From contig OX597828.1 of the NCBI GenBank assembly GCA_951406725.2, forward strand, positions 21,018,001 through 21,082,000: 64,000 bases of DNA. The letters run 5' to 3'. The first letter of the stretch is position 1; each line of letters begins with the position of its first letter. The stretch comes from Octopus vulgaris. Lineage: Eukaryota. Of the stretch, positions 27,496-64,000 are shown in pieces. The translations under genes were made by a program, and so were the position numbers. Under the pieces are notes generated by a model. That model was not told where the DNA came from, searched no databases, and saw nothing but the letters and a program-made list of their open reading frames with translations.

Positions 27496-29924
27496 TTGCT
27501 TAGCCCCAAGTGAACCCTTGACCTAACAAACTTACTCTGACAAACATTTACACAGCTTCTATCCAATTTTTCTTCAATTCCACCCCACCCCCACCCTCAC
27601 TCTTCAGGAATAGTGTATCAAGGACTACATTTTTCTAGACATGCAACTGTGATTTGAAGAACTGGTTGCTATTTCTAGCAGCTTGGAGGAGGAGGCACCT
27701 TCCATAGACTGATGGTGATGATGATGATGATGATGATGATGGTGGTGGTGATATTGGCATAGTATTGGTGCTGTTGCTGGTGGTGGTAGTGTAAATCCTA
27801 ATCAATGAGACCAGGGATCATAAAGCATTCCAGCCATGACCAACACAATTTTATTTTCCTGTGCTCTTTCAGGAAGTACATAAAAAAAATATGTCCTTCT
27901 TTATTGAAAACGGGTTTTTCATCTAAATTGGGTGGGGGGTGCTATTTCTAGCTGGTCGAATGCTCACATCTAAAGACAGTTGGTCAAAAACTGAAGCAAC
28001 CACAGTAACAACCAAACGTAGTGGGAGGATCAGTGAATGAGGAGTGGCAAGAGGAGATGTTTACTATCGGAGTTGCTGGTTAATGGTCACGGCTGGGAGT
28101 CCAGAGCTAAAGAGGGGGAGGAAGAGTAATCGTAAAAAGGGAGTGAGTCAGTCCTCACCTTTTTTTTCTTTCACACTCTCTGTCTCTCTTATACTCTCTC
28201 TCCTTTTCTTGTGTGACGTTTCATAGGAGAACTGAAACGAAGGTAAAGGAAGGTGAAAGAGTAGAACGAGGAGGAAGTGGTGGACGGAAAGGAAGGTAAA
28301 AGTGAAGGAGGAGGGGGAGGAGAAGGAGGGGACGAGGTAAAGGAGAGGAAGTTAAAGTGATTACGATGATGATGATGATGATGATGATGATAATGATGAT
28401 GACTACTATTATGGCTGGAATGACGTGCAGCTACAGATAGTTTTATTAAGTAGGAATGGTTAGTGGATATGTCTGGAAAGAAAGAAAAATAAGGAGTTAC
28501 AGAAGTACAGAAAGAGCGAGAGAGTGAGAGAATGTGAAGAGAGAGAGAGAGTGAGAAATACGGAGACAGAGACAGAGAGAGGTATGAGAGCTATTGGAGA
28601 ATGGGAGAGTAATATCTCTTGCTTATGATGATGTAGAAATGTGACGTAGAGTTGTGACGTAGTCGTTTAGTTGTGACGTAGTCATTGTTATAGAAGTGGG
28701 AGGAAGATAAATAGAAGAAGGAACAGGAGTAGGAGGAGAAGGAAGATCAGCAGCAGCAGCAACAGAAGAAGTAGAAGAAGAGGAAGAAGAAGAATAAAAG
28801 AAGAAGAAGAAGGAAAAGAAGAAGAAGAAGAAGAAGAAGAAGAAGAAGAAGAAGAAGAAGAAGAATGAGAGAAAATGGTGGTAGTGGAAAAGCTGAAGAG
28901 ATAGAGTAAAGATGGAGTAAGGTGACAATAACATGCAAAGAGAAAAACAAAGACAAAAATTGGTGGATTAGTTTATTGAAACAGTAGTCACTGATACTAT
29001 ATTTTAACACAAATCTAAGGTGGTAAGCTGGCAGAAATGTTAGCATGCCGGGCGAAATGCTTAGTGGTATTTCGTCTGTCTTTATGTTCTGAGTTCAAAT
29101 TCTGATGAGGTCGACTTTGCCTTTCATCATTTCAGCATCAATAAATTAAGTACCAGTTACGCACTGGGGTCGATGTAATCAACTTAATCCGTTTGTCTGT
29201 CCTTGTTTGTCCCTTCTGTGTTTAGCCCCTTGTGGGTAGTAAAGAAATAAGTATTTCGTCTGTCTTTACATTCTGAGTTCAAATTCCAATGAGGTCGACT
29301 TTGCCTTTCATCATTTCGGCATCAATAAATTAAGTACCAGTTACGCACTGGGTTCGATTTAATCGACTTAACCCCTTTGTCTGTCCTTGTTTGTCCCCTC
29401 TATGTCTAGCCCCTTGTGGGCAGTAAAGAAATAAGAAACCTTAACACAAAGTTACAAATTCATAAAGGAGTTTGAACTATCTCCATATTTGTACTTATTT
29501 GGTAAGAAACAAAAAAATACAGTAGAATTATGTCGCAGAATTATGCATGCCGAGACCCTTTATGGCACTTCCTAATAGACAGCGCTCATCATGATCACTT
29601 ATCATCTGCTTTTCCATGCTTGTACGAGTCTGGAAGAATTTGTTCAGGGAGATATTCTACAGTTGGACACATTTCTTGATGCTAACCCTCACCTGTTTCG
29701 AAAACAAGGAAATATATTTTCCCATGGCCAGACAATGCTTTTCATGGAAGACTGGAAACAAGCAACATCGGTTGTTTAATGGTGATGCTTGTTTCCTACC
29801 CTCATGTGATGTCAAGACAGGGTACGCAAAATCACCCATGCACGCACGCACACACACACACACACATACACATGCATTCATACATACTGGTTTCAAATTT
29901 TTTTCATAAAAAGAAAAAAATCTG

Positions 29925-55368: not shown

Positions 55369-55477
55369 ATGAGTCTGTATTTGACCAGTTTGATCATAAA
55401 ACAAATAGGATATTTTGGTTGGGTATGGCTGGTTTAAATGCTAAAGTGTTAACTAATTTTTTTTCCTTTCATTTCAG

Positions 55478-56451
55478 CTCGTTTGTCATTCAAACCATTG
55501 GATGCCAAGCCTGTTAATGCCTGCAGCAAGAAGCGCAAACTGTCTGACCAAGACACTAGCCTGAGCAAAACTGCCAAGATTCAAAAGGCAAATATCGAAA
55601 ATAAAGTAAAACTTCACAATAATATTACAAATAATAATGGTATTAATAACACCAACACTAACAATAATAGTAACAGTGGTAGTATTAGTAATGTTAATAA
55701 AAATAATAGTAGTAATGTTGCCGAGATGGAAGTGTGCGATGAGGTTATTTCCAGTTCTGGTTCGAGCGGTGTCGCAACGCCAATGCTACAGACTGTGAAG
55801 TCTCACACGTTGGACAAGTTCTTCTCATCGAGAAACGTCCAAGATGAGATCATTTCTAGTTCCACTAATGACGTCATTGATTTGACCAGATCTGATGGGG
55901 ATGACAACATCAGCGAGAAATGTGAAGAGAATATAGAAAAAGAAAACAAACTGAGCAGCAACTTCAACGAAGATGCTAACTTTGCATTGCTTACAGACTC
56001 TCAAGCTAAGCCCAAGTCAGGCGTCGGCGATGCAAAGGGCAAGGTTCTCAAAGAGAAATTCGATCAGGTTGTGGGACGATCAGGCTGTGAAGTGAAAGTC
56101 TTTCTGCCCGACCTGGCACTTTGCGACATGTCTGTCTGTTCGTCTCCTGCCGACAGCAAGTTGATCAACTCTGCGCTCTCGGGTTCTAGTTGCAAATCCC
56201 CTCTGTCCACTTCCAAGTCCCCGAAACAATGCTCAAAGTCACTGGTGATGCCGACATCCGGAGAACAGAAGGACGACGACGACTCCAGTTCAGAGCTTGA
56301 CCTCTCCACATGTGCCACTCCCTGCAATGAGGAGTCTTCCACTACTTGTTCCGTGGCCAGTCACTCAGATGAGGACGTCACACCAATGGAAAATAATGAG
56401 AAACCAAACCCATTGGCAAGTACTCCAAAACCTGCACAGGTGAAACAAAAG
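55478..56451 (+). CDS. CHAF1A: CHAF1A coding exon 3: large disordered N-terminal region with the PIP1 remainder and a SIM
   Basis: Acceptor TTTTCCTTTCATTTCAG, 974 nt open (the 354-aa ORF in the track), donor AAG|GTGAGT (phase 0). Contains ARLSFKPL, an NLS-like KKRK and DVIDLT (SUMO-interacting motif as in p150). S/N/D/E-rich. Confidence 0.9.
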
Positions 56452-56804
56452 GTGAGTAATAGAGTGGTATATGTGTATATATCTTTTATCTTTTACTTGT
56501 TTCAGTCATTAAACTGTGACTGTGGCCATGCTGGGGCACCACCTTGAAAGATTTGTAGACGAATGAATCAATACTCGTGCTTGGTGTTTTTGTTTATTTT
56601 AAGCCTAGTACTTATTCTGTTTGTCTCTTTTGCTGAACTGTTAAGTTATGGGGACATAAACACATCAACAGTGAGGTGGGTACGAACACAGACACAAAGA
56701 CACACTCATATTTCACCAACCCTCAGATGTTTCCAAGAAAGATGATATTTTGCTTTGGTCAGGCATGTTTTTTCTCATAGACGTTTCAAGACAAACAACA
56801 TATG

Positions 56805-56922
56805 GCTTACAGCCATATCACATTGAAAGCACCGGTTCTCGTCTGATCACCGAAGTTAAGCAACGTCGAGCCTAGTTAGTACATAGATGGGTGACCGCTT
56901 GGGAAACCCAGGTGCTGTAAGC
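56805..56922 (+). rRNA. Full-length 5S rRNA-derived sequence (dispersed copy, probably the head of a SINE or a pseudogene)
   Basis: 118 nt, GCTTACAGCCATATCAC...GAAGTTAAGCAACGTCGAGC...GATGGGTGACCGC...GGTGCTGTAAGC. Terminal helix GCTTACAGC/GCTGTAAGC is perfect and boxes A and C are recognisable. No oligo-T Pol III terminator follows. Confidence 0.9.
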
Positions 56923-57144
56923 GTCAAACATTTATAGGAGGTCCGTTGCAGTCTAGTCTGGATTTAACATTCTCTATCTTAGTCGTCCATGTTCATTCTT
57001 ATCTTTGTTGATCCTGACTTAGAGAATGAGATGTGTTCTATTGTTTGTTTCAGGCATCATAGAGACTAGTGTGCAGTTCCTTGACAACGGCGGTGCATCA
57101 GCATGGCCACAGCTATCTGCTGAAATTACAGCAAAAAGAAAGAA
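56805..57144 (+). mobile_element. Candidate 5S-headed SINE (SINE3-like): 5S head, ~165-bp body and SINE-type 3' tail
   Basis: The tail GGCGGTGCATCAGCATGGCCACAGCTATCTGCTGAAA...AAAAAGAAAGAA resembles the tail of tRNA-SINE family A. The unit splits a repeat seen uninterrupted at 29680-29850. Confidence 0.6.
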
Positions 57145-57622
57145 TTGTTTGTATGATGGTGATGCTTGTTTACGACCACCACTTAGTGTCAAGACGTGCA
57201 CACATGCACACACAAAAACAAACATACATTGGGCTTCTTTCAGTTTCCATCTACCAAATCCACTCACAAAACTGTTCATCATCATCATCATTTAGCGTCC
57301 GCTTTCCATGCTAAGGCTGCATCAGGCCCAGTCTGATCTGGCAGTGTTTCTACGGCTGGATGCCCTTCCTAACGCCAACCACTCCGTGAGTGTAGTGGGT
57401 GCTTTTTACGTGCCACCCGCACAGCTATGATATAGTAAAAGACATTTACCCAAGGTACCATGCTATGGGACTGAATCCAAAGCCACGTGTTTGGAAAGCA
57501 AACATCTTAACAACACAACCACGTCTGCACCAAATTTAGTAAAATGTCAAAAGTTAAGATAAACTTTACAGTTTCTCATCTGGGTTTCTATATTATCGGT
57601 TTCTCTCTCTCTCTCTCTCTAG

Positions 57623-61627: not shown

Positions 61628-63847
61628 GCAGACCACAATCACTTAATTACATAAAGAGGAGTCAGAGTCGCCAATAGTAGAGGAGTTAGAGTCAAAGGTT
61701 ATTGTTTTGACTCCGCAGCCCTGGTTTAAATGCTAAAAAGTTAAATTAGCTCCTATTCAACGACCGAAGCCAATAAAAAAACTGCGTCATCTTCTCTGAT
61801 CGTTTTTTTTTTGTTTGTTTTTTTTTTTAGATTTGGACCTAGTTTCAACCTCTCGTGTATAAATGAGAGAAAATGAAAGGGAGAGGGGTTGATATAGAGG
61901 TGTGTTTGTCTATACACATGCATTTAGTTTGTATATACATACGTTAAGTGAGAGAGAGGTACATGCATACATATAGTCTTTGTGTGTGAATAAGATATAC
62001 AAAATCGAAATCGATCAACATCAATGGAAATTGTAGCTGTGGTGCCGGTGGCACGTACGCGAACCATCCGAACGTGGCCGTTGCCAGCGCCGCCCCGACA
62101 GGCCTCCGTGCCGGTGGCACATAAAAAGCACCATCCGACCGTGGCCGTTTGCCAGCCCCATCTGGCACCTGTGTCGGTGGCACGTAAAAAGCACCCACTA
62201 CACTCACGGAGTGGTTGGCGTTAGGAAAGGCATCCAACCGTAGAAACATTGCCAGATCAGACTGGGCCTGGTGCAGCCTTCTGGCCTCCCAGACCCCAGT
62301 TGAACTGTCCAACCCATGCTAGCATGGAAAGCGGATGCTAAATGATGATGATGATGATTATGTATGTACCTTCCTACCTATAATTTTAACAGTCCCTCTA
62401 TGATGGCCAAACAAAAGGCTACTTACACTGGCCTAGAAATTGACTAGCGAATGTCTAGTTGTTAAATGAGGTCATTGTATTAAAATCAACTTATTTTTTT
62501 TTGCTATACATTGCCTAACTACTAAACGTCTCACATCAAATTAATATACGCCCAATTATTATTATTATGGCGAAGGTGGTGAGCTGGTAGAATTGTTAGC
62601 ACACCTGGTAAAATGCTTAGTGGTATTTGAGCTGGCAGAAATGTTAGCACGCCGGGCGAAATGCTTAGCTGTATTTCGTCTGCCGTTGCATTGTGAGTTC
62701 AATTTCCGCCGAGGTCGACTTTGCCTTTCATCCTTTCAGGGTCGATAAATTAAGTACCAGTTACGAACTGGGGTCGATGTAATCGACTTAATACCTATGT
62801 CTGTCCTTGTTTGTCCCCTCTATGTTTAGCCCCTTGTGGGTAATAAAGAAATAGGTATTTTGTCTGGCTTTACATTCTGAGTTCAAATTCTGCTGAGATT
62901 GACTTTGCCTTTCATCCTTTTGGTGTTGATAAAATGAGTACCAGTTGAGTACTGGGGTTGATGTAATCAACTTAAAACCTCCCCTCCCCGAAATTTCAGA
63001 CCTTGTACCTAGAGTACAAAAGAATGAAATAAGTACGAGTTGATTACTGAGGATCGATGAAATTGGCTGGCCCACCTCCCACAAAATTTCAGGACTTATG
63101 CCTGTAGTAGAAAGAATTATTATTATTATTAATAATAATAATAAGGTGGTGCGGTGGCAGAATCGTTAGCATGTTGGCATTTCATTTGTCTTAATGTTCT
63201 AAGTTCAACTTCTGCCAAGGTCAACTTTTCCTTTCAGCCTTTCAGGACCGATAAATTAAGTACCAGTTGAGCACTGGGGTCGATGTAATTGACATGCCCC
63301 TTTCCTCAAAGTTGTTGGCCTTGTACCAAAATTTCAAGTTTTGTACCTAGAAATAGTTATAATAATATTTTTATTATTGTTATTATTATTATTTTATGTT
63401 ATATTATTTTGTTCTGTTCTGAGTTCAAATTCTGCTGAGGTCAACTTTGCCTTTCATCCTTTCAGAGTTAATTAAATAAATACCTATTTCTTTATTACCC
63501 ACAAGGGGCTAAACATAGAGGGGACAAACAAGGACAGACATAGGTATTAAGTTGATTACATCGACCCCAGTGCGTAACTGGTACTTTAATTTATCGACCC
63601 CGAAAGGATGAAAGGCAAAGTCGACCTCAGCGGAATTTGAACTCAGAACGTAACGGCAGACGAAATACTGCCAAGCATTTCGTCCGGCGTGCTAACGTTT
63701 CTGCCAGATTAAATAAATACCAGTTACACACTGGGGTCGATGTAATCGACTTAATCCCTTCCCTTGAATTTGAATCCTTGTGCTTCCAGTAGAAAGGATT
63801 ATTGTTATATATATTTTTTAAAGCTACTTTCTGTTTGTATAACTCAG

Positions 63848-63990
63848 GAGAGGAAATCTCTAGAACGGCAACACCTAAAGATACAGAAAGATAAAGAGCG
63901 TTTGGAGAAGGAGAAACAACGAGAGATGGAACGACTGGAGAAAGAAAAACTGAAAGATGAACTGCGTCGTAAGAAGCAAGATATGATAGA
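63848..63990 (+). CDS. CHAF1A: CHAF1A coding exon 5 (ERKSLERQHLKIQKDKERLEKEKQREMERLEKEKLKDELRRKKQDMI), KER domain; the gene continues beyond the window
   Basis: Acceptor ...TAACTCAG, phase-0 start, donor GA|GTGAGT at 63990/1. KER composition. Confidence 0.87.
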
Positions 63991-64000
63991 GTGAGTCTTG

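Follow-up and report, generated by a model that had tools for sequence, protein, structure and literature searches.

What brought a complete 5S rRNA sequence, a body of about 165 bp, and a SINE-like tail together at positions 56,805 to 57,144 of the Octopus vulgaris DNA analyzed here (the window: 64,000 nt, GenBank assembly GCA_951406725.2, contig OX597828.1, positions 21,018,001 to 21,082,000 of the forward strand)? An earlier note on the same DNA had proposed a 5S-derived SINE (SINE3) family, spread as a Pol III read-through retroposon. The reading that we consider likely is that the unit is a one-copy, sense-oriented combination of a pre-5S transcript, a structured small RNA, and a retroposon tail, put together by a double template jump of a LINE reverse transcriptase (RT), with a middle RNA predicted to be of the Ro60-binding Y type.

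Anatomy and single occurrence of the 5S-body-tail unit

The unit and its flanks are composed as follows.

56740..56801, + strand: left half of an older host repeat, the insertion target, which aligns with the repeat at 29690-29830 up to 56801
56802..56804, + strand: 3 nt at the 5' junction, ambiguous between host and added bases; no TSD seen
56805..56923, + strand: complete copy of 5S rRNA with the haplotype 61G/81A/102A/119G and 5 private changes, 3 of them at CpG
56924..56933, + strand: pre-5S 3' trailer of 10 nt with a T3 end, a type common to 53/86 dispersed 5S copies with any partner
56934..56935, + strand: 2-nt linker, judged from its sequence to be probably untemplated; other joins have comparable A/T linkers
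56936..57085, + strand: 150-nt copy of a ~155-nt Y-RNA-like small RNA, 5'-complete, without the last ~5 nt and the U tail
57086..57144, + strand: tail type C, ~55 nt, LINE-3'UTR-type, with an A-rich end and the layout of the 3' UTR of a young RT-encoding LINE
57145..57195, + strand: right half of the older host repeat, which resumes at about 57145

Rfam model RF00001 matched 56805-56923 over its whole length (119 nt, 102.3 bits), the internal promoter boxes are mostly retained, and the first T4 3' of the 5S copy lies at 57403, in agreement with the earlier observation of a complete 5S sequence without an oligo-T terminator directly after it. The same 4 nt precede the 5S sequence in 10 near-full-length dispersed 5S copies. 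The body that had been described as unique is a real stretch but is not unique, being composed of a 10-nt trailer, a 2-nt linker, and a 150-nt unit present in multiple copies. Likewise, the tail is genuine, but it represents a sister variant (type C) and not the tail of the window's dominant tRNA-SINE (family A); of the LINE partner proposed to be common to both, what stands is a LINE-type tail of like layout. The left host-repeat flank is collinear with 29690-29830 up to 56801 and the right one from about 57145 (two spanning copies only), and the two rejoin within 3 nt. This supports the proposal of a single insertion into an older repeat that is contiguous near 29750-29795, and realignment again revealed no TSD around the unit at this locus. 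Since the last ~5 nt and the U tail of the body are missing, its terminal stem is broken. The window copy of the chimera is presumably dead.

The insertion apparently lies in an intron of a + strand gene, with an open frame up to a GT at 56452 and an AG at 57621-57622. Exons of this gene were placed at 55453-56451, from 57623 onward, and at 63830-63994; a weak CAF1A_acidic match (E 0.0024), which is below the cut-off, points tentatively to chromatin assembly factor p150, and Pfam gave no match on the exon upstream of the unit.

The body unit (56936-57085) has 19 other matches in the genome, which collapse to 15 independent loci when a four-fold duplication and a locus split in two are each counted once. 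None of the 19 has a 5S sequence within 1.5 kb, and one (L002) carries a tail, of a different variant. Conversely, the body lies beside none of the 85 other distinct dispersed 5S copies (86 examined, including that of the window), and a genome-wide pattern of a 5S end followed by GAGGTCC gave 4 hits (control, 7), of which the window is the sole real join. Thus, no other locus was found at which 5S, body, and tail occur together, as the SINE3 reading had required, and the body's further copies stand apart from 5S. The possibility that the body is 5S rDNA spacer, a comparison that the earlier note had recommended, was ruled out: the body occurs in none of 30 5S loci and nowhere in 200 kb of 5S array with 137 5S matches. 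Matches of the body to known Rfam RNAs were at chance level, and that identity was set aside. A single contig reads across the join of 5S and body; what type of run it comes from is a guess, and the locus lies in an intron. The 5S array itself (G000 C4:35.20-35.34 Mb, L103-L122) contains its 137 matches in both orientations, with several trailer types and an AT-rich upstream element common to the units.

Joins of 5S and U6 to retroposon parts across the genome

The genome holds more than 100 independent 5S-headed chimeras. Exact patterns retrieved 55 joins of 5S to the tail and 57 joins of 5S to a tRNA SINE that we take to be CORE-type (controls, 0). Linkers were heterogeneous (71 distinct among 80), and many of them are array-type precursor trailers cut at differing points. 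By eye, the 29 next-best 5S loci comprised 16 joins to the CORE-type SINE, 9 to the tail, 2 to other SINE heads, and 1 to another repeat, with 1 array gene. OR2 is named as an octopus CORE SINE in a listing within PMC4758252. The window's 5S haplotype and trailer occur in 53 of 86 dispersed copies and across four kinds of partner, and therefore mark a source transcript ending in its own U run; a source gene with this trailer type was not found, the 137 array matches included. The 5S part is a precursor transcript with its own trailer and not the read-through product of a master element, as had been suggested. Across 43 copies of 5S joined to SINE, changes in the two halves were uncorrelated (r -0.001, permutation p 0.47), which led us to reject a composite 5S-CORE-SINE lineage for these copies, as the halves show no co-inheritance.

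Capture extends to U6. The 30 best U6 loci, classified by eye, consist of 7 genes, 10 tail joins, 9 joins to SINE parts, 3 joins to other repeats, and 1 ambiguous case, so that 22 of the 30 are joins of these three kinds. At another locus (L298), U6 is joined directly to a 185-nt Y-like RNA, the counterpart of the 5S-Y join in the window. At G000 C25:5.354 Mb (L028/L029), two pre-5S copies with trailers lie head to tail and are followed by a 5'-truncated ORF, which its motifs lead us to regard as Penelope-like; Pfam gave no match on this ORF or on a piece at L299. Because 5S and U6 are joined to many partners via heterogeneous linkers, a tripartite chimeric retrocopy that arose once is the best reading of the window unit. 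For the same reason, the idea that the 5S-Y join is a trace of a shared Ro60 particle was unneeded and was dropped. Furthermore, counts of "5S-derived SINEs" in cephalopods, such as the about 24,000 5S-derived loci of the giant squid (PMC6962438), may include chimeric copies, since more than 100 independent ones were found here. Separately, three different tails are attached to one and the same tailless tRNA-type SINE end at L161, L213, L232, L236, and L228, a set that also contains a copy, presumably tRNA-Gly-like, joined to tail C.

Tail C (~55 nt; 201 exact 31-mer hits, control 0; L213-L242) often stands alone in (TA)n and has a fixed 5' start. A young LINE (L217, L243-L272, L274), which we assume to be CR1-like, encodes endonuclease and RT domains, is likewise inserted in (TA)n, and has copies of 98-100% amino-acid identity at the 150 places scored of 38,140 candidates. 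Its short terminal 3' UTR has the layout of tail C, and tail C is for this reason considered LINE-3'UTR-like; the exact LINE parent was not found, and no captured RNA was seen at the 15 young-LINE 5' junctions in view (of 30 copies). At G000 C8:117.988 Mb (L003), a full body RNA ending in T3 sits on a 5'-truncated endonuclease-encoding LINE and is preceded by a (TATC)n run, itself after the 3' end of another LINE.

A Y-RNA-like small RNA and its promoter-bearing paralogues

The window body is a copy of a separate structured small RNA of ~155 nt and not a SINE body: its copies have a common 5' end, and none extends beyond the 3' end and T run. In two runs labelled as other organisms, the RNA is covered over its full length by free-standing contigs of 157 and 156 nt; an oligonucleotide in one of these two runs is presumably a cDNA template-switch primer. 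All four runs compared with the window differ from it at 56990, 57006, and 57016, as does the genomic majority. Eight of 24 runs were compared, all as contigs, which do not show ends, strand, or level; since no listed run is on record as RNA, the contigs are a hint of expression and not proof. The majority sequence folds better than most shuffles (z -2.7; 2/300 as good), with a stem in which nt 2-8 pair with the 3' end at P 0.73-0.99 and C9 is unpaired. Single copies gave z -1.9 and -1.95, and the truncated window copy -0.4. The body lacks a good internal A or B box, and no promoter-bearing source gene was found in the assembly by DNA search, two patterns (6 + 9 hits), or inspection of loose contig ends; L054, L057, and L100, considered as source genes, were chance matches.

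Several observations concern the body's copies. Nine of the 15 independent loci (within L004-L014) are tailless and end at positions equivalent to 57041-57047, which suggests internal priming or cleavage in a U-rich stretch; the notion that this cluster lies in an unpaired loop was discarded, as it falls in a predicted weak hairpin. A body fragment also lies within a segment present four times at G000 C4:59.74-59.90 Mb (L016-L019). In addition, two different Y-like RNAs have head-to-tail copies that are circularly permuted (L005 1501-1668 and L301/L312) and in which the 3' end joins the 5' end with an 8-13 nt terminal overlap and no long U tail, and the L005 junction was found as DNA in other runs.

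The RNA of which the body is a copy carries, in its paired ends, GGUCCG at nt 5-10 with a predicted bulged C9, UUGAC near the 3' end, and a U tail, an arrangement known from the Ro60 site of Y RNAs; GGUCCG and UUGAC came to lie near the ends by chance in 3 of 200,000 shuffles. Both match fragments of hY4 printed in PMC5493846 (GGUCCG at nt 5-10 and a 3' UUGAC). Vertebrate Ro60 sites are described in part of PMC4726728 as a 7-bp helix with a bulged C and a 3-nt bulge opposite; passages of other papers place the bulged C at C9 (PMC4030889), have Ro60 contact GGUCCGA (PMC4201824), and give the motif GUG-CAC (PMC4450293). Three further intact genes with such ends, each with a U6-type promoter and a T-run terminator, were found.

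G000 C11:3,393,110-353 (L292 1579-1822): Y-like gene L292, 244 nt
G000 C21:34,753,138-322 (L293 1578-1762): Y-like gene L293, 185 nt
G000 C13:19,461,950-2,090 (L365 1579-1719): Y-like gene L365, 141 nt

The promoter-anchored searches took their octamer and TATA spacing from this genome's U6 genes. The strict pattern gave 2 hits (control, 5) and the relaxed pattern 9 (control, 11); the counts are no higher than in controls, and the evidence thus lies only in the 3' ends, which the patterns did not specify. A complementary UUGAC stem followed by T4-5 was present downstream of 2/2 strict and 3/9 relaxed hits and at 0/24 TATA-only and 0/49 background control sites. TATA plus GAGGTCCG alone was no commoner than expected by chance (226 vs 1,059) and was used as a control. 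Of the 16 hits to a strict promoter core, 8 were U6, 8 had no assignment, and none was Y-like. The three paralogues have a U6-type octamer at -77/-78 (degenerate in L365) and TATA at -29/-30. No further Y-like gene was found within 40 kb of L292 or L293, and the genes are on different contigs. Their folds gave z -2.6, -1.4, and -3.9, that of L293 being weak (14/150 shuffles as good). L293 has 29 further genomic matches, L292 has 1, and L365 has 2; the L293 copies include ones joined to tail C, joined to SINE, behind U6, and permuted. As a side observation, a U6-type promoter core with a correctly spaced TATA and a T4 ~60 nt on (L288, G000 C15:35.40 Mb; no Rfam match) is possibly a short Pol III gene.

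Across the four RNAs, the invariant parts are GAGGUCCG and UUGAC only, around the bulged C9; the upper stems diverge in sequence and still pair. Paired ends with a single bulged C9 are predicted in 4/4 (C9 pair probability 0.00-0.02). GGUCCG is present in all four, and position 11 is U or C, so that the full GGUCCGA does not occur. The opposite-strand bulge measures 3 nt in L292 and L293, 4 nt in L365, and about 5 nt in the body, and an oligo-U 3' end is encoded as T4-5 in the three genes and, among body copies, as T3 in L003 and T5 in L002. Rfam model RF00019 (Y_RNA) had no match on the body, on two paralogues, or among genome-wide candidates (51 of 527,416 scored), and GUG-CAC was not seen in the upper stems. 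We filed the four as Y-RNA-like and not as members because of the absent A11, the 3-5 nt bulge, the missing GUG-CAC and RF00019 matches, the missing body source gene, and the putative nature of binding. The genome contains Ro60: one exon matches Xenopus Ro60 (E 5e-46) with the R184 and H187 positions retained and is 99% identical to an Octopus RO60 entry. A second TROVE-domain locus (G000 C3:24.66 Mb; L051, L052) had no match to Ro60 structures, and its exons gave no useful match against the PDB.

Collectively, these features suggest that the four octopus RNAs very probably work like Y RNAs. The wider model is that Octopus has a family of four or more long Y RNAs, 141-244 nt in length, which would bind Ro60, are invisible to Rfam, can be found via their U6-type promoters, would be molluscan firsts, and have head-to-tail copies recording circular or self-jumped forms; we favor it with somewhat less confidence. 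Our search of openly available papers, with Rfam as the RNA database, found no mollusc Y RNA. Ro60 is widespread among animals. The portion of PMC4726728 that lists Y and Y-like RNAs gives only vertebrates, nematodes, two insects, a lancelet, and bacteria, and Y RNAs were not found in schistosomes (PMC2770079); a passage of PMC4030889 predicts them wherever Ro60 exists. If the assignment is true, the octopus Y RNAs would be the first on record for molluscs. Four candidates and a promoter-anchored search make the Y RNA question testable across molluscs, and the octopus sequences help show which stem positions are truly fixed.

Origin of the unit and comparison with known systems

As in chimeric retrocopies, the unit joins distinct cellular RNAs, all in sense, to the 5' side of a retroposon 3' end. 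Under the proposed mechanism, the ~55-nt tail RNA would be the first template, primed by a LINE RT at the target. From there the enzyme would move to the Y-like RNA at its trimmed 3' end and copy it to nt 1, add two bases, and jump to the U end of the pre-5S transcript, which it would also copy to nt 1 before the cDNA end was joined without a visible TSD. We infer template jumping from the polarity, the complete 5' ends, the variable trailers, and the short linkers.

Descent of head, body, and tail from a SINE3 master would account for the intact 5S head, with its promoter boxes largely retained and no T4 before 57403, and for the haplotype and trailer that 53 of 86 dispersed 5S copies share and that are absent among the 137 array matches. 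The head also fits the definition of 5S-derived (at least 60 nt, 60% identity), and the tail has the layout of the young LINE's 3' UTR, though an exact parent for it was not found. However, one copy of the unit was found, and the SINEBase description, in its section on definitions, asks for at least 100 copies and keeps RNA pseudogenes apart from SINEs (PMC3531059). Moreover, the shared haplotype occurs with four kinds of partner, and linker diversity and uncorrelated halves speak against a master. This reading is therefore largely refuted, and we give it hardly any credence. Alternatively, tail, Y-like copy, and 5S copy may have arrived one by one at the same spot, a route named for triple chimeras in part of PMC4476161 and compatible with the lack of a TSD binding the three parts together. 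The host repeat rejoins within 3 nt, however, all parts are sense and 5'-complete, and more than 100 two-part joins of equal polarity exist; we consider stepwise arrival very improbable. A further possibility is that the RNAs were ligated end to end by an RtcB-type activity before one reverse transcription, with the head-to-tail copies representing copied circles. The permuted copies at L005 and L301/L312, with 3' joined to 5' end and no long U tail, would fit, as would the L005 junction, real DNA in other runs, and the fixed 5' start of tails; ligation is also one of the two accepted routes to U6/L1 chimeras in the relevant passage of PMC11838501. Nonetheless, the A/T linkers vary, trailers are cut at many lengths, and a jump within one RNA, from its 5' end to the 3' end paired with it, would also yield permuted copies. 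On general grounds, moreover, the ends of 5S and Y RNAs, 3'-OH and 5'-triphosphate, would be poor RtcB substrates. We consider ligation unlikely, although the joins observed here fit either route.

The identity of the middle RNA has its own alternative, that it belongs, with its three paralogues, to another or a not yet described class of type-3 Pol III RNAs without Ro60 binding. This would explain why Rfam gives no match, A11 is absent, GUG-CAC is not seen in the upper stems, and the lengths of 141-244 nt exceed those of human Y RNAs (83-112 nt in the portion of PMC4030889 concerned). It would leave unexplained why four otherwise unrelated sequences keep only the two end motifs around a bulged C9 while their upper stems vary in sequence yet pair, and the body's lack of a good internal A or B box also counts against it. 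We regard another class as slightly less probable still than ligation. Template jumping onto a candidate Ro60-binding RNA thus remains the reading that we prefer.

The window unit resembles SINE3 elements in its 5S head and LINE-type tail, as these are described in parts of PMC3531059, PMC10886601, and PMC4758252; unlike them, it is single-copy, has no master lineage, and has a body copied from a cellular RNA. The four octopus RNAs resemble vertebrate Y RNAs, nematode sbRNAs, and CeY in their predicted paired ends, 6-7-bp lower helix, and bulged C9, in GGUCCG, UUGAC, asymmetric loop, variable central loop, and U tail, as well as in having individual Pol III genes (candidates for three of the four), a genomic Ro60, and many retrocopies. 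They differ in their length of 141-244 nt, a U or C at position 11, a bulge of 3-5 nt, the absence of GUG-CAC and of an Rfam match, genes on separate contigs, and Ro60 binding that is predicted only.

As a chimera, the unit is nothing unusual and falls within a known kind. U6/L1, U6/L2, U6/RTE, U6/CR1, U6/SINE, and triple forms are described within PMC4476161, human 5S/L1 and Y/L1 chimeras within PMC11838501, and a Magnaporthe triple chimera within PMC2104539. As in these, the small RNA is full length, reads in sense, and precedes a retroposon 3' end; the partners include several LINE clades as well as SINEs, and triple forms are occasional. In contrast to human 5S/L1 chimeras, which are often antisense and truncated, a main captive in octopus is a full-length sense pre-5S with its trailer. 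Such chimeras have been proposed as raw material of new SINEs (PMC4824008). The octopus forms stand out among known chimeric retrocopies in that the partner is often a bare ~55-nt tail, the host is a mollusc, and small RNAs are joined to one another (5S-5S, U6-Y-like, and 5S-Y-like).
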